64,000 nt of DNA from UHGV virus genome UHGV-1374671; one strand, given 5' to 3'. The notes beneath the pieces were generated by a model. It worked only from the letters and a program-made list of their open reading frames with translations. It was not told where the DNA came from and did no database searches. Below are positions 3,072-30,356 of this stretch, in pieces (positions within the stretch are counted from its first letter, which is position 1; every line of letters starts with the position of its first letter). The stretch is from a virus. The position numbers were made by a program, and so were the translations under genes.

Positions 3072-3850
3072 TCAACACGTACATCAACGACAACGTAAAC
3101 GTACCGTATCCGTTTTTCGGTATGGGGTCCCTGCCGTTCCCCATGTGCTGCATCGTCGGGTTCGGCATCTGCATTCACGGACCGCTTACCGGGCTGATCT
3201 TCATATCGTCGCTGGAGATCACCAACAGCTCGATCAAGGCTGTCGTTGTAATGGGAAGCACCATCCTGGGTACCGTGGAGTGCCGGTCGTATTCCGGAAA
3301 CAGGACTTCGGCTATCCAGGCAACGCAGTCCGACGTTCAGCTGTCAGGGTTCATGACCATCGGTGACATCCCGAAGACGGCTATCGGTCACTATGATGGG
3401 GTGTTCCCGATCGATCCGTCTTGTATAACCAACATGCCTGATGCAGTGTTCGGATACCACAGGGCTGTGGAGATCAACGGAACATCTTACACGATCGGAC
3501 AGCAGTTGGAGATCTCGGCGTCCGGTCTGTTGTCGATCTCCGGAAACACCATTCAGGGAACGAACCAGGTCACGAGCGCCAACCTGACGACGTTCGACTA
3601 CATGAACGACTACTCCATGGTGAAGACCGTAAACGGCATGTCCTTTCATCCTCACACGGAGTCCAACATACCGACGCTGACCTTCAAGACGGACTATCCT
3701 GATTGTGTGAAGTTCGACGTGATAGGCGGGGCCGGCATGCCCGAAGAAGGAGATGTGGATGAAGGCATCGGGGACGTTACGGTACTGGTGATCAATGGAA
3801 CCAAGAAGTTTCCGAACTGCTACAAGCAGGAAGATGACGAGGCCCTGTAA
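3068..3850 (+). CDS. hypothetical protein
   Basis: 260 aa ORF with ATGA start/stop overlap with previous gene. Confidence 0.45.
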   Translation: MINTYINDNVNVPYPFFGMGSLPFPMCCIVGFGICIHGPLTGLIFISSLEITNSSIKAVVVMGSTILGTVECRSYSGNRTSAIQATQSDVQLSGFMTIGDIPKTAIGHYDGVFPIDPSCITNMPDAVFGYHRAVEINGTSYTIGQQLEISASGLLSISGNTIQGTNQVTSANLTTFDYMNDYSMVKTVNGMSFHPHTESNIPTLTFKTDYPDCVKFDVIGGAGMPEEGDVDEGIGDVTVLVINGTKKFPNCYKQEDDEAL

Positions 3851-3865
3851 GGAGACCTGACAGAA

Positions 3866-4603
3866 ATGCTGAACTCATTCAACATAGACAGATCCGATTC
3901 CGAGATCAACACCAATTTCCCATTCCAGTGGCAGTGCAGGCTGCAGCTTGGATCCGTACAGCTGCCATCAGGTCTGATACGCTCCATTCGAGTGCATTGC
4001 ACGGAAGGCATACTGCCCCCTGTGAGGCTTCACAAGGTCCAGATCAACGGCGACAACGGAACGGCCGAGTTTCGTGATTCACAGGGCGTATCCGTCTGCT
4101 TCTGGAAATTTTCTTACAAGTCATCCGACACTCGTATCAGTGCGTTTCTGACGAACAGTTACAACGTGATCAGCGGACATATCGTGTGCTCGGAAGAATT
4201 GCCGGCCATGCTGTTCTCGATTGCGGCTGCCAATAATAACGAGGTGACCACAGAGAGCGACGATTTCCTGTTGCTGCCCCAGTGTCACACCTCCAGTTTG
4301 TCCGGGTACTGCAAGGCGTTCAAGATCGGTGATACTGTTTACAACAGCGATCTTACAATCAAGTCAGGTGCTTACACCAGTTCAGAATTCAAGGGCGGCG
4401 TGTACTCCATAAGCCTGCTTGGCAAATACGCAGTAGACACGGATTCCGCCATGAACAGGGACGGTATCATGCAGTTGAGCGTGAACGGTGAGACCTATTA
4501 CGTTGGTGGACGACACCTGCTTATCCGGGCGGGAATGACGTCGAACCTGAGAGTGGTGATGGCGAACTCCGCAATAACGCTGAAGGGGGTGCAGGATGAT
4601 TGA
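3866..4603 (+). CDS. hypothetical protein
   Basis: 245 aa ORF in operon context. Confidence 0.45.
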   Translation: MLNSFNIDRSDSEINTNFPFQWQCRLQLGSVQLPSGLIRSIRVHCTEGILPPVRLHKVQINGDNGTAEFRDSQGVSVCFWKFSYKSSDTRISAFLTNSYNVISGHIVCSEELPAMLFSIAAANNNEVTTESDDFLLLPQCHTSSLSGYCKAFKIGDTVYNSDLTIKSGAYTSSEFKGGVYSISLLGKYAVDTDSAMNRDGIMQLSVNGETYYVGGRHLLIRAGMTSNLRVVMANSAITLKGVQDD

Positions 4604-5330
4604 GGCTGTAAAGGATCTTGCGGTCAGCTACCCGTTTATCCCTGGAAGCACGGTGCCTGAGGCGCTGAAGCACATCAAGGACGCCAGGATCATCTTTGAG
4701 CTGCCGGCAAACACGTATCGACAAGGCGACAGCAATACGATGCAGTTCTACGCCGAGCTGGTCAGCATTGATCCGAGCAAGGCTGTGTTCCATGTTGTGT
4801 GCACACCGTTCTCGGTGGACGAGAACGTGACAGTGCCTGTCAACGTGGGAATCTTCAATGTTCCGATGGGCAACAATTACGTGCTGGTGGACGAGCCTGT
4901 GACTTATACCGGGTCTCACACGCTGCATCCGGATTGCCTGATCTTCTTCCAGAAAGCTCCCAAGCTCAGTGCGGCTGATAGGACCGCTGTACGGTCTGAT
5001 GATTCGTATTCTTCGGAAGTGTACGGTTTTGGGCCAACCATAGCCTTTGCGGACGGGTACAATGTGAACGTGTCCGGCAACGAAAGCACGGTGGTGTTCA
5101 ACGGAGGAGAAGGAAGCGGACTCGGCATCTGGCTGACGTCTCCGTGGGTCGACGTTAAGGACTCCACCTTGAGAGCCGCAGTAGGCCTTCGCACCATAAA
5201 CGGAAAGAACGGCAACGTCCAGATCAACGGAAGCCAGTCAGTCGGCGTCGAGGGTACCGGAGGCATCGAGCTGGTGATTAACCCGCTGCCTTATCCAGAA
5301 GACGATGAGGACGAAGAGGTCACCCCATGA
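4596..5330 (+). CDS. hypothetical protein with acidic C-terminus
   Basis: 244 aa ORF overlapping neighbours by 8 and 4 nt. Confidence 0.45.
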   Translation: MIEAVKDLAVSYPFIPGSTVPEALKHIKDARIIFELPANTYRQGDSNTMQFYAELVSIDPSKAVFHVVCTPFSVDENVTVPVNVGIFNVPMGNNYVLVDEPVTYTGSHTLHPDCLIFFQKAPKLSAADRTAVRSDDSYSSEVYGFGPTIAFADGYNVNVSGNESTVVFNGGEGSGLGIWLTSPWVDVKDSTLRAAVGLRTINGKNGNVQINGSQSVGVEGTGGIELVINPLPYPEDDEDEEVTP

Positions 5331-6487
5331 TCAGGATCAAAGAGAACAGGTGCGGTTACGCCGGATACAAGTGCGTCGGTATTGAAGAGCTGAAAGAACC
5401 GTTCCGGTATAAAAAACTGGTGTGCGACACCGAGATAAACCGTACCGAGTTCCCTGTGCAGGACTGGTCCGAGGATACGCCTGACGAGGCCAAGTATCAT
5501 CTCATAGACAACTACAAGAACATCCCGACCCTGCTGAAGGGTTTCATGATGACCAGCAGCACTCTGATCGATATGGACGTTGCCGTGTCCTACCCTGAGA
5601 AAGAGTGCCGCACCAATGTGAACCCGTTCCTTACCGTTAATGGCGAGGTCGGATTCCTGGACATGTTCAACGAGTACAGCGACCGGGTCAAGGGCCGCAC
5701 CGAGGGCAGCGAATACGTTGATTTGAAGACCAACATGCTGTGCTTCAACACGAATCCAGGAACGGCTGAAACAGAGGGCACTGACGGGGATGAGTTGATG
5801 TTCGAGCCTGGCATCATTGAGCCCATGCTCGACACGGAATTTTCTCCTGTCGGAATTGAACTCAGCACAGGTGTGGACGCCAGTCTGGACGGTATCATGC
5901 TCGCGATTGCCATGCTTACCAAGTGGCGTACTGTCATCGAGGGCAAGATCAACGATATCTACACCCGGCTCGGTCATATCACCGGGATCAGAAACATGCT
6001 CATCTCGATGCAGATGGAAAGTATCTGCGACGACTTCCGGATTGAACTGGTATCAGGAGATCCTATTCAGTGGACCGGATCCAAACGCGAACCTCGGTAC
6101 CGCGTAGGGGATGGTTACGTATATGTGAACGGCAATCCGATATACGTCAGTGGACGGTCAGCAGAGGGAGAGTTCTACATGTACATAAACCTGTACAAGG
6201 AAGGAACCGACCCGGAAGCGACAATCACTGCAGAGATGGAGACCGAGCCGAAAGGAGACTTCTCTCTTGGCATAGGCGGCGTCAAGATGACGTACAAGAC
6301 TCAGCGCGGAGTGCCTACCTATCGTGTATATCAAATTTGGCAGGAAGGCTGCATGTTTGAAATCGACATGGTACGCACCAATGACGAGGGCTTCCTGTTC
6401 CGTACACTATCCGGTGATTCCCCGTACAAGGCATATCCATACGGTACCTGTCCGAAGGAAGGCGATGAAGACAATCCGAGCTCGTAA
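5327..6487 (+). CDS. hypothetical protein
   Basis: 386 aa ORF, ATGA overlap with previous gene. Confidence 0.45.
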   Translation: MIRIKENRCGYAGYKCVGIEELKEPFRYKKLVCDTEINRTEFPVQDWSEDTPDEAKYHLIDNYKNIPTLLKGFMMTSSTLIDMDVAVSYPEKECRTNVNPFLTVNGEVGFLDMFNEYSDRVKGRTEGSEYVDLKTNMLCFNTNPGTAETEGTDGDELMFEPGIIEPMLDTEFSPVGIELSTGVDASLDGIMLAIAMLTKWRTVIEGKINDIYTRLGHITGIRNMLISMQMESICDDFRIELVSGDPIQWTGSKREPRYRVGDGYVYVNGNPIYVSGRSAEGEFYMYINLYKEGTDPEATITAEMETEPKGDFSLGIGGVKMTYKTQRGVPTYRVYQIWQEGCMFEIDMVRTNDEGFLFRTLSGDSPYKAYPYGTCPKEGDEDNPSS

Positions 6488-6561
6488 ATATTGATAGTTG
6501 TGCTACATTATTGGGTATACGGAGTATACGCAATTTGGCTTAACTAGCAAAGGACACAGCT

Positions 6562-7299
6562 ATGGCGATTCATGGGTGTCACAGTTGTGGGGTAGACATT
6601 TCACAGTACAAGAGCTATGAAGAAAGTCCATGCGCCACATGCAAGCTGACAAAAGAGCACAACAAGACTCACCGTCCGGAGCTGTTTGACAGCGGTATTG
6701 ACGTCTCCACGGCGGAAGAGCAGGAAAAACTCGAAGTACAAGAGGACAGCGACACTGTATTGCTGCTTCAGCGACTGGGATGCGGTAAAGAGGACAAAGA
6801 CAAGGCCATCCATCTCCTGATGGAGGTCATACAGAACCAGGTTTACATTACCGCGTCCAACATCATCATCAAGATGTTGAAGCTGGCGAAGATCAGTCCG
6901 ATCATGTTTGAAGTCGTTCTTAAGAAAATGCAGTTCCCGTACATGAGCTACTCGGAAATAGGGGACAGCATGAATCCGCCATGCAGTAAACAGAACGTGC
7001 TCTATCATCTTAAGCACGCGGTTGAACTGTTCCCCGACCTGAACAACGCGCTGCTGACTGACACCAGATTCAGCGCCGGCAGGTACGCACTTCAAACCGT
7101 AGCCAATCGTTACCGCCAGATACAGGGCAAACGAAAAATACACGGCTTGATTTACAGCAACGACCCGGCTATGCGTGCCCATGCCATGACTGAGTTGAAT
7201 GCGATACTGTCTGCTCCGTTCATGATAAGTGACGCCATTGTAGATTTTGATCTGTACACCAAAGACGAGGAACATAATGAGCGCACCGCTGCGAATTGA
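6562..7299 (+). CDS. hypothetical protein
   Basis: 245 aa ORF after 74 nt intergenic gap. Confidence 0.4.
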   Translation: MAIHGCHSCGVDISQYKSYEESPCATCKLTKEHNKTHRPELFDSGIDVSTAEEQEKLEVQEDSDTVLLLQRLGCGKEDKDKAIHLLMEVIQNQVYITASNIIIKMLKLAKISPIMFEVVLKKMQFPYMSYSEIGDSMNPPCSKQNVLYHLKHAVELFPDLNNALLTDTRFSAGRYALQTVANRYRQIQGKRKIHGLIYSNDPAMRAHAMTELNAILSAPFMISDAIVDFDLYTKDEEHNERTAAN

Positions 7300-20458: not shown

Positions 20459-21736
20459 ATGAAAATTGTACTGGCCGATACAGTGATCACTGTGTTCGGG
20501 TGGCTCAATGTGATGGATCAGATCGGAAAGTACAAGCTGAAGATCCGCAAGACTCCTCAGGAGATCCGTGAGGAGAAGGAGATCAGACGACAGCGGTACG
20601 GAAGCGACGCCCATAAGGTGAATCCTATGCGGTACGAAGATCGCACCGTGATCGCCAAGAATCCGTCTGATCCTACCATCGCATACTTTCTCCCAGGGCT
20701 GTGGCCACGGGTGAAAGGCTATCTGGATACGCAGAAGATTACATACGAAATCGAGGACAAAAGGGATCCTTCCATCAGGCCTGACCCGGACTATTCAAAA
20801 CTGGCCGGAGCGACATTGAGACCAGGACAGGATACCGCCTTGGCCCTGATTACGTCGTTGGATTGTGGGCTAATAAATACCAGCACGGCATGGGGAAAAA
20901 GCCATCTAATATCTTTTATATGCAAGGTTTATCCCACGCTTAACATTGTCGTCACCACTGGATCCACCACGGTGGTCTCAACTCTGTACGAATATCTGTG
21001 CAAGCAGCTGCCCGGCCAGGTCGGTTACCTGTACGCCAGGGGCAACACCACGCATGGAAAACGGGTGATTGTGACCACGCTGAAGTCGTTGCCGAACATC
21101 TCTCCTGAGCGCGTCCAGTTGCTGTTGTGCGACGAGTGTCATGCCTGCGGAGACAACGAGGCCGGCAGGGCAGTGTCCAAGTTTGTGTTCAGCCGCAGAT
21201 TTGGATTCTCCGCCAGTCCGATCCGCAATGACGGCTCCAGAATCGTTATGGAGTCCATCTTCGGACCTGAGATCATGAAGATGACCTACCAGGAGTCTGT
21301 TGACGTTGGAAACATCGTTCCCATGAAGTACCTGATGCTGCCTTGTCACAAAGGGCCAACCAGCTTGTGCGACAAGCCGGGCATGGACGATGTATTCAAG
21401 AAGCGCTTCGGGTACTGGTGCAACTACAACAGGAACAGGGCTATTGTGGAACTGGTCTACGACATCAAGCAGGTGTATGAGGGCCAGATTTTGATAATGG
21501 TCGGTTCACTGGAACACGCAATTCAGTTGCACATTATGCTGCCCTGGTTCAAGGTCGCTCATTATGGCGCAACTGACTTGGACGAACTCAAGAAAAAGAA
21601 GTTCTCCAAAGACAAATACTCCGACATTGACTTTTCTCAGTACAAGATGAGCCAGAAGCAGCTGGACATTATGCGGGCCGCCTTTGCAAAAGGTACGCTC
21701 AGGTACGTGATCTGCACCAAAGTGTTTAAACAAGGT
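20459..21736 (+). CDS. SF2 DExH-box helicase, exon 1 (interrupted by group I intron)
   Basis: motif I TSTAWGKSH; motif II LLCDECHACG; motif III FSASP; ORF runs into a stop at 21760 before motifs V/VI, which resume in the ORF at 22024. Confidence 0.7.
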
Positions 21737-22023
21737 AAACATCAATGCCTCGCAGCATAGGAATGTGCTGTCGTGAGCCGCTTAATTGCTGGGAACTCCG
21801 ACCGGGTAATGCCGAGGACAATCAGCAGCGAAGTCCTGAAAAGTAGGAAACGTTCAACGACTATCCCTGCGGGGAGTACACGCAAGTGCGTGGAAACAGC
21901 GGCCACCCAGAACGGGTGAAGATATAGTCTGACCTTGCATGGTAACATGCAGCTGGATTAACAATCCGGGCTGAGCGTAACGAACTCAGTTGAACACAAA
22001 AGGTTGATTTTAAAGCACTTACG
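21737..22023 (+). ncRNA. group I self-splicing intron (ORF-less, ~290 nt) in helicase gene
   Basis: P/Q/R/S-like elements: TAATTGCTGGGAACTCC, AATCAGCAGCG, GTTCAACGACTATCC, GAAGATATAGTCTGACC; exon 1 ends on T (ggt); G immediately precedes exon 2. Confidence 0.7.
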
Positions 22024-25895: not shown

Positions 25896-26921
25896 ATGCA
25901 AGACTTAGGCGTCGTCGACGTCAGCATGCGGCACTTTGTCGGGCCGGTTCACATCCGGGTATGGGAGCCCGGAGATCCGTTCCCGACACTGGGGCCTTCC
26001 GTTGGCGTTGACACAGAAACCGAGCTGATCACGGACACGGTGAAGGACCCGCCGGTAGTTGTTACCGGCGTGTTCGACCCTGCGAACTCGAATTGCTGGA
26101 TCGTTTACTGGCAGCATACCGCAGCGTTCATGCGGGAGCTGAACAAGCGCGACATCCAGCAGAGGTACTTCAACGTCGGGTTCGACGAACAGGTGCTCGA
26201 CAACGAGGACGAGGAGAAGAGCCTTCTGACGGCTGTCGACGCAAGGCGGGTGCGTGATATGCAGATCCGCATTCACCTGCACGAGATCGCCACGCTGGGT
26301 TGGATCCGAGGCAATCTGTACAACCTGGCGGACTGTGCTCTGCACTTCCTGAATGTGACGCTGGACAAGGGTGATCCGGACGACTACGAGAACTCTGCAC
26401 GAATGACGTTTCGGCGGCATAATAAAGATGGGAGCGTTTATCGCATAACGGATGAACAGGCCAAATACCTGTGTTATGACTGCGCTTCCACCTGGGGTCT
26501 CGGAGAATCGGTACCGGAACAGCCAACCGAGGTGGAACATACCAAGGGCATGATCGTCCTGGCACACATCAGCACCAACGGCATTCAGGTCGACCCTGTA
26601 GTGTTCGACGCCATGGAGGAGAAGCTGTTCAAAGCCAGGGACGAGGCCAGGCTTCGTCTGCTGGCGTTTGGATTCCCAGATCCGTACAAGGACGTCAAGA
26701 AGGAGGCCGCAGCCGAGCGTCAGCTTTTCTACTCGGAATACAAAAAGCTGTGTGAATCGGCAGGACTGGAGTGCCATCTCGGCATGGAGGAACAGACACT
26801 CGATGACGAAGACGAAACCGTCATTCAGGTTCCTAAAATACCAAAGAAGGACTCTCTCAGGCTGATGGTCTGCTACCTGTATCGATGCTTCACGTTCGTA
26901 CACAATACCAAGAACGCGGCG
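25896..26921 (+). CDS. polA: family A DNA polymerase, exon 1 (3'-5' exonuclease domain)
   Basis: Exo I VGVDTETE; Exo II/III-like YLCYDCAS; frame hits a stop at 26924 immediately before an intron core. Confidence 0.7.
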
Positions 26922-28478
26922 TAGGTACCTTTGCGGCGTGAGCCGCATCGAAGAAGAAAGTGAATTGCTGGAAGCCTAAACCGGGAGTGTAGCCCGGCAT
27001 GGTAATCAGCAGCCAATCAACCGGATCGCTAAACTGGATTCAACCATCCAGCATGCACCGGGGAAAAGGTTCAACGATCATCGGGGTGTCCACCTGATAA
27101 GCGGCCCCGTTAGCGTGCAAGCGTGCGCGAAGTGCTCCGTGACGGGAAACCGTCACGATGATATGATCTGTGCTACCCGAAAGGGATAGGAAGCCCCAGC
27201 CTGATCAGCTGGATAAGCCGGGTGAGCGTAGCGAACTCACTTGAACAAGAACCATGAGGTCTTATGAATCGACGTAAATTCTCACATTTACGCTTGATAT
27301 TGTTGACGTACATGCTATATTAGAACCAGGTACTATAATACACGGAAGTTTTGAAGTGATAAGCAGAGCTCATACAATCAAGCTGAAACCCAATAAAGCA
27401 CAGGCGATCATGCTGGCCAAGACGGCCGGTACTGCCAGGTATGCCTACAACTGGGGATTGGCCAAGTGGAATGAGCTGTACGAAGCCGGTGAGAAGTGCA
27501 GTGCTTACAGCCTGATGAAACTTTGGCAAGAAGGCAGACCTGACTGGGCATTGGAAGTGGGCGCTGCGTGTTTGCAGCGCCCGTTCATGCACCTGGAAGG
27601 CGCCTTCAAAGCGTTCTTCAGAGGACAGCGTAAGCACCCAACCTTTCACAAGAAGGGTTTGCGGGACGGGTTCTACGTCCCGAATACTCATTTCAAACTC
27701 CGTGGTAACAAGGTTCAGCTACCCAAGTGCGGACTTGTCAGAATGACCGAGCGTATTCGTTACGCGGATGTGAAGGTTGTTTCTTCGGCAGTCAAGCACC
27801 AGGCAGACGGCTGGTATGTCGTAATCCAGGTCGAGCTTGAAGAGGAACACAGAACCGAATCCGACTCTTTTGTCGGAGTCGATGTCGGATGTACCCAGCT
27901 CGCAACAGCGAGCGACGGTACGACCTGCTGCTCACCGGCCAAGCTCAAAGACCTGGAACGTCAGCTGAAACGTAGACAGCGCTTGCTGGCACGCAAAGCC
28001 AAGGGCTCCAACAATCGAGCGAAAGCGAGATTGAAGGTAGCCCGTACCTGGCAACGAATCAACAATATCAAACAAGACACAGCTCACAAGTTCACTGCAC
28101 TCATTGCCAAGAACCACGGCACTGTTTGCATTGAAAAGCTGGATGTGAAGAGTATGCAATCAGGAGACAACGCCCTCGTAAGAAAGGGCGTGCATAACTC
28201 CTGCATGTCGGAAATCCTGAGACAACTCAAGTACAAGTGTAACAACTTTATTGAAGTTGACAAGTATTTCCCGTCCAGTAAGACTTGTTCGAACTGTGGG
28301 CACATAAACGCTGAACTGACCCTTGGGGATCGCACGTATAATTGTCCGGGCTGCGGACTGAAAATCGACAGGGATCTGAACGCAGCGTTGAACCTCCGTA
28401 AGGAGGGTCTGAGGATTTACACGGTGGGTCACACCGGCAGTGCCTGTGGAGTTGCCCGGTAACGGGCGGCGCTGAAGC
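26922..28478 (+). mobile_element. IStron-like element: group I intron ribozyme core fused to an IS605-family (TnpB-only) module, inserted in the DNA polymerase gene
   Basis: ribozyme core ~26950-27290 shares P/Q/R/S elements with the helicase intron (GAATTGCTGGAAGCC, AATCAGCAGCC, GTTCAACGATCATC, GATATGATCTG); IS left-end-like hairpin CGTAAAT-tctcac-ATTTACG (~27268-27289); tnpB 27356-28462; right-end hairpin GCCCG-gtaa-CGGGC spanning the tnpB stop; the polymerase frame reopens right after a TGA at 28473-28475. Confidence 0.7.
27356..28462 (+). CDS. tnpB: TnpB (IS605 OrfB-family RuvC-like RNA-guided nuclease)
   Basis: 368 aa; RuvC-I GVDVG; CSNCG...CPGCG zinc finger; RuvC-III DRDLNAALNL. Confidence 0.85.
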   Translation: MISRAHTIKLKPNKAQAIMLAKTAGTARYAYNWGLAKWNELYEAGEKCSAYSLMKLWQEGRPDWALEVGAACLQRPFMHLEGAFKAFFRGQRKHPTFHKKGLRDGFYVPNTHFKLRGNKVQLPKCGLVRMTERIRYADVKVVSSAVKHQADGWYVVIQVELEEEHRTESDSFVGVDVGCTQLATASDGTTCCSPAKLKDLERQLKRRQRLLARKAKGSNNRAKARLKVARTWQRINNIKQDTAHKFTALIAKNHGTVCIEKLDVKSMQSGDNALVRKGVHNSCMSEILRQLKYKCNNFIEVDKYFPSSKTCSNCGHINAELTLGDRTYNCPGCGLKIDRDLNAALNLRKEGLRIYTVGHTGSACGVAR

Positions 28479-29453
28479 AGGAAGATTCATAAGAATCGTG
28501 AACAGAACCACTCGGACGAGCCTGACGAGCTCCAGCTGTGTGCCGAGAACGTCAAAATCGTGTGCGAAATGGAGAAACCGTCACTGCGGAAAGACGCCAG
28601 GAACATGTACTCGAAGCTCCTGGAGGACTACGAGATCATGGCGTTCGACCAGGCCACCAAGGGAATCGTCATGCCGTCGTTTGTGGCGCATCTGATGGAG
28701 CACTACAACAAGCAGCGTGATTCCGGAGAGGTCGCAGCAAAGGGCTACGACTTCGGAGCCGCAGTCAAGTACGCCAGCGAGTACATCGACGATCATCCTG
28801 AATGGCTGTCGAAATCCGAGCAGATAGGTCCCAGCAAATTCTTCCAGAATCATGTGAAGGGCATCATGGAGGCCAATCCGAAGCTGGAGCTGGAGACCAC
28901 TCCCAAGAGTGGGGCAGTCAAGCTGACACTCAAGGACAAGTGGCGGTTGGAGGACAACGGCATCAAGGACAAGTTCTTGGATGCTTACATTGACTTCAAT
29001 CATTGCCAGAAATATTTAAGTACCTATATGAACCGTTTGTTCATCAAAGGGGATAATCGGATACATGCCAGGTTCACAAATATTTTGCGGACCGGACGTA
29101 CCAGCTGCACCGGACCTAACTTGCAGAATTATCCCAGCAGGGACAAGGTGTTTCCGTTGAAGAACATCTTCTGTCCTTACGATGGCATGCTGTTGTGTGC
29201 TACCGACTTCTCGTTTATTGAGTTGTGTGGCTTTGCCCAGTCCTGTTACAGCAGGTTTGGGTTCAGCGTTATGCGCGACGTCATCAACGCAGGTCTGGAT
29301 CCGCACCGCTGGTTCGCAGCGGTGATGGACAAGCTGATCAAGCCGGACCTGACGCACAAGGACGACCCGAAATGGGTCGCGGAACTGAAAGGATTTTTGA
29401 AAGCAAATGTAGACGATTCAAGACGACAAAAGGCCAAAATGGCCAATTTCGGT
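28479..29453 (+). CDS. polA: family A DNA polymerase, exon 2 (fingers/palm, motifs A and start of B)
   Basis: RTGRTSCTGPNLQNYP and DFSFIELC (motif A); RRQKAKMANFG (motif B start); frame then breaks after NFG. Confidence 0.7.
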
Positions 29454-29680
29454 CGACCATCAAGGCCGAATTAAAACTGCGGAATTAAGCGGGGAACTCT
29501 CATTGAGACGATCCGAACCGAAGCCTGGAAGGGATTCCAGTCAGGGACAGAGCATACCGGCAGGGGAAGAACTCCCATCAGCCGACACGAGGCCGCAGCA
29601 ACTGGAGAAACAACTCTGGTTGAAAAGATATGCCGAGCTGTGTGGCGACATACAGAAGTGCTGGATAAAAAGCCGGCACG
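29454..29680 (+). ncRNA. putative small group I-like intron (~227 nt) splitting polA motif B
   Basis: exon ends TTCGGT; GCCGAA 12 nt downstream can form a 6-bp P1 with a G-U pair at the splice site; GAATTAAGCGGGGAACTCT resembles the P element of the other introns; AAAGATATGCC is S-like; a G at 29680 precedes an in-frame continuation ITKLFPGALGV...EEAEF. Confidence 0.5.
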
Positions 29681-30328
29681 ATAACAAAACTGTTTCCAGG
29701 AGCACTGGGTGTCAAGACTTTCTACAGGAACTGCAGGGAGTCCGGCGTACACCTGACCATGGAAGAAGCTGAATTCATGCGGGATGCGTGGATCAGCACT
29801 TTCAAGGAAATGAAGTTCCACATGAAGCCAGAGAAGTTGCGTAACTCGACAGGGTTCGGCAACCAGTTCGGCTTCAGGGACGACGAAGAAGAGTACATCG
29901 ACCCGTCCGAGCAGGACAGGCAGTTGTACAGGGCAAAATTAATTAATGGAATGGTTAGAAACAGGTGCAGTTTCAATGCGGCCTGTAATATGCAATTCCA
30001 AGGGCTCGTGGCATTTGGCGCGAAGCTGGCAGGCTGGAATCTAGTAACTCACGGATACGAACATAGAGTAGTCAATTTCGTACACGACGAATTTCTGTAC
30101 TGCCTGTATCCGGAGGAGCTCAAGGTCCACATCCCTGTCATTGAGCGCCTGATGATCGACGGGATGAGAGTTGCCATCCCGGATGTTAAAGTAGGAGTGG
30201 AATCCAGCGTCATGCGTCATTGGGACAAGAAGGCGACGGAATTCCACGACGTGAAGTGGGACGAGCAGGGAAGACCGCTCATTGAAGAGCCGCTGTTCGT
30301 CCAGAGTGTTCTCAAAATGGCCCAGTAG
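29681..30328 (+). CDS. polA: family A DNA polymerase, exon 3 (motif C, C-terminus)
   Basis: ESGVHLTMEEAEFMRDAW (post-motif-B helix); NAACNMQFQG; NFVHDEFLY (motif C HDE). Confidence 0.7.
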   Translation: MTKLFPGALGVKTFYRNCRESGVHLTMEEAEFMRDAWISTFKEMKFHMKPEKLRNSTGFGNQFGFRDDEEEYIDPSEQDRQLYRAKLINGMVRNRCSFNAACNMQFQGLVAFGAKLAGWNLVTHGYEHRVVNFVHDEFLYCLYPEELKVHIPVIERLMIDGMRVAIPDVKVGVESSVMRHWDKKATEFHDVKWDEQGRPLIEEPLFVQSVLKMAQ

Positions 30329-30356
30329 GGCGAACGAAAACGAAAGGTACGCAAGA

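Follow-up and report, generated by a model that had tools for sequence, protein, structure and literature searches.

A probable 239-nt group I intron without an open reading frame in motif B of a phage family-A DNA polymerase gene

The window analysed here is the whole 64,000-nt stretch of the UHGV virus genome UHGV-1374671. On its plus strand, the ORF at 28560-29474 encodes a family-A polymerase that reads …RRQKAKMANFG and then RPSRPN*, with the stop seven codons past the break. The frame breaks directly after the GGT codon (29451-29453) of the motif B sequence NFG, and another frame holds the remaining fingers and the palm (ESGVHLTMEEAEF…, NAACNMQFQG, VHDE). A reading of the sequence alone, made before this analysis, had described this interruption, and ORFs and homologs agree with it. 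Pfam DNA_pol_A matches lie on both sides of a 239-nt gap, and the gene is laid out as follows (the sign ↓ marks insertion or splice junctions throughout).

25896-26882, plus strand: polymerase exon 1, located by tblastn with P0001 and P0004
28506-29453, plus strand: polymerase exon 2, thumb and fingers up to motif B, located by tblastn with P0001 and P0004 and by Pfam DNA_pol_A
29454-29692, plus strand: intron, 239 nt, whose last base is G29692 (omega-G), directly before TTT CCA GGA
29693-30328, plus strand: polymerase exon 3, starting TTT CCA GGA (FPGALGV…), with the remainder of the fingers and palm motif C (VHDE)

The three exons together encode 856 aa, and the spliced ORF is in frame. They are intact, 63-68% identical to uninterrupted homologs, and retain all catalytic motifs. 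The local tblastn alignment of exon 2 with queries P0001 and P0004 extends to 29462, and that of exon 3 with uninterrupted homologs covers 29693-30337. When the spliced C-terminal part was used as a protein query, 162 homologs were returned, the best 120 of which were listed. Every one of 25 full-length homologs (836-875 aa, 46-66% identity) carries K..NFG[FL][PG]G, as in AKAANFGFPGALGVKTF, and none of these uninterrupted proteins has a four-residue insert after NFG. The polymerase is one gene of three exons, not three fragments, and its correct junction is NFG↓FPG. No isolated phage gave a tblastn match to the polymerase above 31% identity, which leaves no cultured relative for comparison.

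The 3' end of the interruption had been placed by the sequence-only reading at G29680, for a length of 227 nt. This is 12 nt too early, since the 25 uninterrupted homologs read NFG↓[FL][PG]G and the tblastn alignment resumes at 29693, both giving G29692 and 239 nt. The joined sequence proposed at that time, NFG↓ITKLFPGALGV, has to be replaced by NFG↓FPGALGV, the residues ITKL being intron sequence and not protein. An alternative shifted by one base (29453-29691) would give an identical protein; 29454-29692 is preferred because only there does the exon end in U and the intron in G, which is the group I rule. The 3' tail GAUAACAAAACUG ends in the omega-G, the sequence GATAACAAAAYTG is a 3' tail common to introns in unrelated genes, and the introns of relatives at the same site all end in …YUG. 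The predicted spliced junction is …AATTTCGGT↓TTTCCAGGA…, that is, GGU↓UUU, and an intron-less motif B reads …GCCAATTTCGGTTTTCCAGGAGC… at the insertion site.

Structural modelling makes it very probable that the 239 nt constitute a complete group I intron, devoid of an ORF, placed in an essential family-A DNA polymerase gene after the Gly codon that closes the motif B sequence …ANFG and before the next Phe codon. With the window and three relatives as input, P1, P3 to P9.1 and the P7 pseudoknot were drawn, all in canonical order. The elements, with pairing frequencies among relatives, are the following.

29448-29453 and 29465-29470, plus strand: P1, UUCGGU/GCCGAA, from complementarity and the minimum free energy (MFE) fold, with the wobble U29453·G29465 at the exon end
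29462-29464 and 29693-29695, plus strand: possible P10 of 3 bp, AAG/UUU
29477-29482 and 29593-29598, plus strand: P3, CUGCGG/CCGCAG, 89% paired, all six pairs changing on both sides
29490-29493 and 29512-29515, plus strand: P4, CGGG/UCCG, 96% paired, all pairs covarying, in the RNAalifold consensus
29498-29501 and 29505-29508, plus strand: P5, inside P4, UCUC/GAGA, 78% paired, all pairs covarying, in the RNAalifold consensus
29518-29519 and 29544-29545, plus strand: P6, CC/GG, 89% paired
29525-29540, plus strand: P6a, CUGGAA-GGGA-UUCCAG, 95% paired, in the MFE fold
29552-29556 and 29629-29633, plus strand: P7, GCAUA/UAUGC, a pseudoknot, with 98% of cells pairing
29558-29584, plus strand: P7.1 (CGGC/GCCG) and P7.1a (GGGA/UCCC), a compound hairpin between P7 and P3', helices 99% and 96% paired, all pairs covarying
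29585-29598, plus strand: junction ACACGAGG, then the P3 3' strand CCGCAG (29593-29598), CACGAGG being near-invariant in the seed alignments
29599-29622, plus strand: P8 hairpin, CAACUGGAG-AAACAA-CUCUGGUUG, in the MFE fold, its base covarying
29623-29628, plus strand: J8/7, AAAAGA, conserved in relatives
29638-29655, plus strand: P9, CUGUGUG-GCGA-CAUACAG, GNRA-capped
29658-29679, plus strand: P9.1, GUGCUGG-AUAAAAAG-CCGGCAC, the P9 and P9.1 helices being 92-96% paired

The last six nucleotides of exon 2, TTCGGT (29448-29453), form the 5' strand of P1, with U29453 as the 5' splice-site U, and the internal guide sequence GCCGAA forms its 3' strand, leaving a P1 loop of 11 nt (29454-29464). This 6-bp pairing with a G-U at the splice site had been noticed from the sequence, and it is borne out by complementarity, by the MFE hairpin and by the retention of GCCGAA in introns at the same site. 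Both a P-like and an S-like element had also been pointed out correctly: AATTAAGCGGGGAACTCT corresponds to J3/4-P4-J4/5-P5, and AAGATATGCC to J8/7 plus the 3' strand of P7. The Q and R elements, described then as not obvious, are present as well, as GAUCCGAACC (3' strand of P4) and GAGCAUACC (J6/7 plus the 5' strand of P7), so that the P4 and P5 region (29490-29515) is the counterpart of the classic P and Q elements and the P7 3' strand UAUGC belongs to the classic S element AAGAUAUGC. The odd look of R and S is due to P7, which is GCAUA/UAUGC and not the textbook GACUA/UAGUC.

The MFE fold recovers P1, P5, P6a, P7.1a, P8, P9 and P9.1 and is more stable than those of shuffled sequences (z = -3.5). 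It favours an alternative P7, CGGCA/UGCCG, which was rejected since it is not conserved in relatives, where GCAUA/UAUGC covaries instead. Several helices are short (4 bp in P4, 2 bp in P6 and 3 bp in P10). P10 has 5 bp and covaries by eye between two same-site relatives, GGGAA/UUCCC in L114 and GGCAA/UUGCC in L009. P3 appears among relatives as UCACGG/CCGUGA, GAGCGG/CCGCUC or UCCCGG/CCGGGA, and the inner helix of P7.1a is 57% paired family-wide and covaries among same-site relatives. Both the loop of P9.1, AUAAAAAG, and the tail CACGAUAAC (29656-29692 in the window) are almost invariant across unrelated genes and hosts, the surrounding stems covarying freely; this implies some function, perhaps a tertiary contact or the positioning of the 3' splice site.

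Statistical support was obtained with two covariance models (CMs). The first, R1, has 208 positions, was seeded with the window and three relatives, and deliberately omits P7. It gave 108 matches in 79 sequence sources, 80 of them distinct, and scored the window copy at 226.9 bits. In these 80 distinct rows 91.2% of cells pair, compared with 32-43% after shifting the partners by 1-3 columns and 60% after shuffling, where none of 500 shuffles reached the observed value, and changes on both sides occur in 48 of the 51 pairs; the alignment was fitted to the structure of the model, which biases these counts towards pairing for every helix except P7, absent from it. P3, P4, P6, P6a, P7, P7.1, P8, P9 and P9.1 are each 89-99% paired. 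In P7, three of the five pairs covary among GCAUA/UAUGC, GCGUA/UACGC, GACUA/UAGUC and GCGCA/UGCGC, the first variant being the most frequent in the family, with 32 distinct rows, and the first pair, G29552-C29633, is G-C in all 53 distinct relatives, which fits the predicted guanosine-binding pair.

As the window was a seed of R1, a second model, R2, was built without it from six relatives and an automatic RNAalifold structure. R2 gave a single match in the 64-kb window, at 29472-29692, full length, with 159 bits and an E value of about 1e-39. In addition, with the guide sequence offset fixed at -12 to -7 from P3 and the P1 partner sought up to 75 nt upstream, 13 of 63 distinct relatives proved to have a fully paired 6-bp P1 that ends in U·G, versus 2.3±1.3 (maximum 6) in shuffled upstream sequence. 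The guide sequences differ (GACAUC, GGCAUC, GCGGGU, GUCGAU, GCCGCA, GGGGAU and others), each matching its own exon. A loosely constrained automatic P1 search, in which the offset was not fixed, gave 30% vs 21% in controls.

The sequence-only reading had proposed a group I-like intron inside motif B, and the covarying P3-P9.1 core and the R2 match uphold it. Its suspicion that the intron may be degenerate or depend on trans-acting parts finds no backing, as the P3-P9.1 core is complete and shows compensatory changes in every helix among 80 distinct relatives. Our own models R1 and R2 match the element, and the Rfam model RF00028 (Intron_gpI) does not. RF00028, with a gathering threshold of 50 bits, was run on the whole window and on the 551-nt region 29300-29850 and found no match at the site in either, in the latter even at E<=10. 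The same model also missed the T4 td intron (L157) in a 2.9-kb search at E<=10, although the 738-nt ORF of td may itself defeat it; the failure at the polymerase site is thus weak evidence, and it bears on a detector rather than on a property that defines the class.

The family is tied to curated group I introns by elements that both R1 and RF00028 match. Above the gathering score of RF00028 are the R1-matched relatives L101 (103 bits), L091 (55.9 bits) and L148 (53.5-67.5 bits), and an Rfam-certified intron elsewhere in the window (RF00028, 21727-21952, 88 bits) is weakly matched by R1 at 21773-21969 (19.4 bits). By blastn against isolated phages, the match is confined to the last 69 nt (29621-29689, 81%). 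A first DNA pattern, TGGCGACATAYAGAAGTG, proved too narrow, finding three loci, and a pattern of P9.1 plus tail, GAAGTGNNNGATAAAAARNNNNCACGATAA, was used instead, which recovered 32 stretches in viral and 40 in metagenome sequences; the 57 distinct ones lie in a wide range of genes. By eye these stretches share …GCAUAG…CACGAG…(A)AAGAUAUGC…, with P7 varying. A polymerase-based search of viral contigs gave mostly distant, uninterrupted genes, L009 alone being useful. Multiple copies of the family were seen within 1-2 kb in several sequences: two in L121 (443-658 and 786-1006), three each in L144, L117 and L148, and two each in L147 and L097. Neighbouring copies have different guide sequences, so that neighbouring sites are each occupied, probably within one gene.

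The insertion site lies after what we take to be Gly763 in E. coli Pol I numbering, from our own mapping of RRSAKAINFG in motif B. The same intron family interrupts seven other phage polymerases at NFG↓ (L086, L114, which is identical to L133, L009, L158, L159, L160 and L161), with R1 scores of 189-217 bits, and none of the tested copies of this lineage is above threshold with RF00028. In all five same-site introns read (window, L158, L086, L114 and L009), GCCGAA lies 6 nt 5' of P3. In each of the seven relatives the P1 loop, from the 5' splice site to the guide sequence, contains an ORF that extends into the core; its length is 301-343 aa in L086, L158, L159, L160 and L161. Of the four examined, L158 and L086 gave weak Pfam zinc-ribbon and HNH matches, and in L009 and L114 an HNH-type motif was recognised by eye. 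In contrast, the window intron, with its 11-nt P1 loop, contains no credible ORF and is the only ORF-less copy among the eight. It looks minimal because the ORF of its same-site relatives is absent; the earlier suggestion that it would be among the smallest group I introns is not borne out, 239 nt being small but unexceptional and reflecting the missing ORF.

Comparison of these sequences suggests that the window copy has most likely lost its endonuclease gene rather than never having gained it, in which case it would no longer be able to home unaided. Between L158 and the window the exons are 92-95% identical and the intron core 72%, and the two introns share their first three nucleotides (CGA) and GGCCGAAUUAAAA. 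Among the best 120 polymerase homologs, at least 16 are ORFs whose stop follows NFG by no more than a few codons, and all eight loci examined at NFG↓ carry the same intron family. We consider it an even chance that the position after Gly763 is an undescribed homing site of family-A polymerases, occupied by one long-lived intron lineage across a broad clade of uncultivated phages.

Three other explanations of the interruption were weighed. The intron could be a dead or crippled relic that keeps the group I shape but splices poorly unaided, the polymerase being a pseudogene or a host or phage splicing factor being needed. P4 and P6 are indeed short, the sequence of P7 is non-canonical, Rfam gives no match and the endonuclease ORF is apparently gone, and in the homing cycle endonuclease loss tends to precede intron decay. 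However, every core helix is intact in the window copy, its P7 variant is the commonest in the family, and the exons, with their catalytic motifs, are intact, as expected if splicing still expresses the gene; we regard a relic as improbable. A genuinely split polymerase, in which two separately translated polypeptides assemble and the 239 nt are a mere spacer, is suggested by the exon 2 frame stopping seven codons into the gap and by an ATG at 29759 in the downstream frame. However, the break falls inside the motif B helix, and the downstream product would lack FPGALGV…HLT, which precedes the first ATG. Exact removal of the 239 nt recreates the sequence of uninterrupted homologs; moreover, the supposed spacer is a conserved, covarying RNA present in unrelated genes. 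A split polymerase is thus very improbable.

Even less credit can be given to translational bypass or frameshifting, to a mobile insertion other than an intron (a miniature insertion sequence or a group II fragment) or to an assembly artefact, which share the observation that the reading frame differs on the two sides of the gap. To our knowledge, 239 nt far exceeds known translational bypass lengths, and on that count bypass is hard to accept. Eight independent assemblies carry this element at the same position, which rules out an artefact. We also considered whether the GNRA hairpin at 29638-29655 could be a group II domain V and rejected this by eye, as its flanks form no lower helix with a 2-nt bulge.

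For the group I intron that we favour, a splicing pathway can be proposed, with catalysis and in vivo splicing inferred from its homology with group I introns already characterised. P1 would form between the exon end UUCGGU and the guide sequence GCCGAA, with the wobble U29453·G29465 marking the splice site. The invariant G-C pair in P7 (GCAUA/UAUGC) would bind an external guanosine, which would attack after U29453, the terminal G29692 would then take over the guanosine site, and the freed exon would attack after G29692. The product would read …AAU UUC GGU↓UUU CCA GGA…, that is, …ANFG↓FPGALG…, restoring the fingers helix.

Other insertions were observed in the same gene, elsewhere in the window and in relatives. 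Upstream in the polymerase gene, a 1623-nt insertion occupies 26883-28505 of the plus strand, between …CYLY (TAT ending at 26882) and NHSD… (AAC starting at 28506). RF00028 weakly matches its start (26873-27189, 26.3 bits, E 3.7e-4) as group I, and the insertion contains a TnpB/OrfB_IS605 ORF (27356-28462) and a weak RAGATH-18 match (28443-28483). The preceding exon ends in T, the insert ends in …AACAG, and L158 is without it. It looks like an IStron, a group I intron fused to an IS200/IS605 element; for comparison, in group A IStrons a T-rich pentanucleotide precedes the insertion and the element ends with TCAG (PMC4227781). The third group I intron of the window (21727-21952, plus strand, RF00028, 88 bits), which probably runs from about 21738 to 22003, splits a superfamily-2 helicase-like gene (ORF 20459-21760, with ResIII and SNF2 matches), the frame of which resumes near 22004. 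The exon ends in …GGT, and td-like P9, P9.1 and P9.2 appear to pass the end of the Rfam match.

In L158, a 1231-nt insertion (3380-4610) with a GIY-YIG/NUMOD endonuclease ORF lies in motif A (…CATDFSFIE↓L), and no intron core was found in it by R1 or by Rfam at the gathering threshold. The equivalent position of the window, 29223↓29224, is without it, and thus the two phages carry different sets of insertions in one gene. A second group I intron in the L086 polymerase (6323-6619) scores 59.5 bits with RF00028 and 32.6 bits with R1; it lies downstream of the motif B intron, at a distance of about 250 nt. Among metagenomic homologs, many are cut short at two further conserved motifs, ending in …RTGRTSCSxPN↓ (P0054, P0067-P0070, P0083, P0084 and P0089) or in …CATDFSFIE↓ (P0063, P0066, P0073, P0077 and P0081), and a few end 1-6 residues before NFG (P0037, P0046, P0052, P0057 and P0059). 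Such truncation of homologs at conserved motifs suggests that this polymerase clade may have several more hot spots for intron or endonuclease insertion.

Regarding annotation, the three polymerase fragments merge into one three-exon gene of 856 aa. Phage intron surveys that rely on RF00028 will undercount this family, for which the 3' signature GAAGUG-N3-GAUAAAAAR-N4-CACGAUAA is a cheap detection handle. If the position after Gly763 is indeed a homing site, the window copy is a natural 239-nt ORF-less form of its lineage. Together with the ORF-bearing copy in the 92-95% identical relative, the window copy makes a clean natural pair for the study of endonuclease loss.

In the Michel-Westhof classification, subgroup IA introns are defined by an additional helix region that separates P7 from P3' and consists of P7.1 together with either P7.1a or P7.2. 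The window intron is filed under subgroup IA and is not narrowed to IA2, because it has a single compound hairpin instead of P7.1-GUA-P7.2. Phage family-A polymerase genes are well-documented hosts of subgroup IA2 introns, which splice in vitro, with examples in SPO1, SP82, Bastille, ΦI/W31, phiL7 and Pf-WMP3 and with insertion sites at 674, 676 and 881 in E. coli numbering (PMC3428280). In IA2, separate P7.1 and P7.2 hairpins are joined by G-U-A, and a P2-less intron with P7.1 and P7.2 has been described (PMC3428280). In Bastillevirinae, polymerase genes commonly contain two or three introns (PMC11878797). The window intron resembles the phage IA2 polymerase introns in its host gene, in its insertion into a highly conserved fingers/palm motif, in the presence of several introns per gene, in the extra pairing between P7 and P3', in the absence of P2, as in Pf-WMP3, and in the ORF of its relatives, which shows weak HNH matches or an HNH-type motif. 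Unlike them, the window copy is ORF-less, the ORF of its relatives is in the P1 loop and not in P6a, and the insert between P7 and P3' is one compound hairpin without a GUA linker. The site after Gly763 is not among the 674, 676 and 881 of PMC3428280, the one paper compared for sites, and is a fourth intron site in family-A polymerases beside those three.

The T4 td intron, the textbook IA2 intron that carries I-TevI, offers another comparison, drawn by eye and not scored. It resembles the window intron in the P4-P5 region (ACGGGGAACCUCUCUAGUAGACAAUCCCG in td, GCGGGGAACUCUCAUUGAGACGAUCCG in the window) and in P9 and P9.1, which in td are CUGCAUG-GUGA-CAUGCAG and CUGGAUAUAAUUCCGG. Both introns are missed by RF00028. 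In contrast to the window intron, td has P2, P9.2, a GIY-YIG ORF in P6a and a canonical P7 (GACUAU/AUAGUC), and R1 gave no match to it at E<=0.01.

Finally, the terminase insertion of Staphylococcus phage 6ec-type genomes (Sextaecvirus) and Arcanobacterium phage TPWB06 is 81% identical to the window intron over the last 69 nt (P9, P9.1 and tail), with compensatory changes in both hairpins and an R1 match of 65-68 bits. It differs in splitting the terminase large-subunit gene, in carrying a GIY-YIG endonuclease ORF and in its P7.1 region. The records annotate two terminase fragments and no intron, and the window-like stretch is the 3' end of the insertion. In conclusion, the intron in motif B is an ordinary kind of phage element, with nothing conceptually new.
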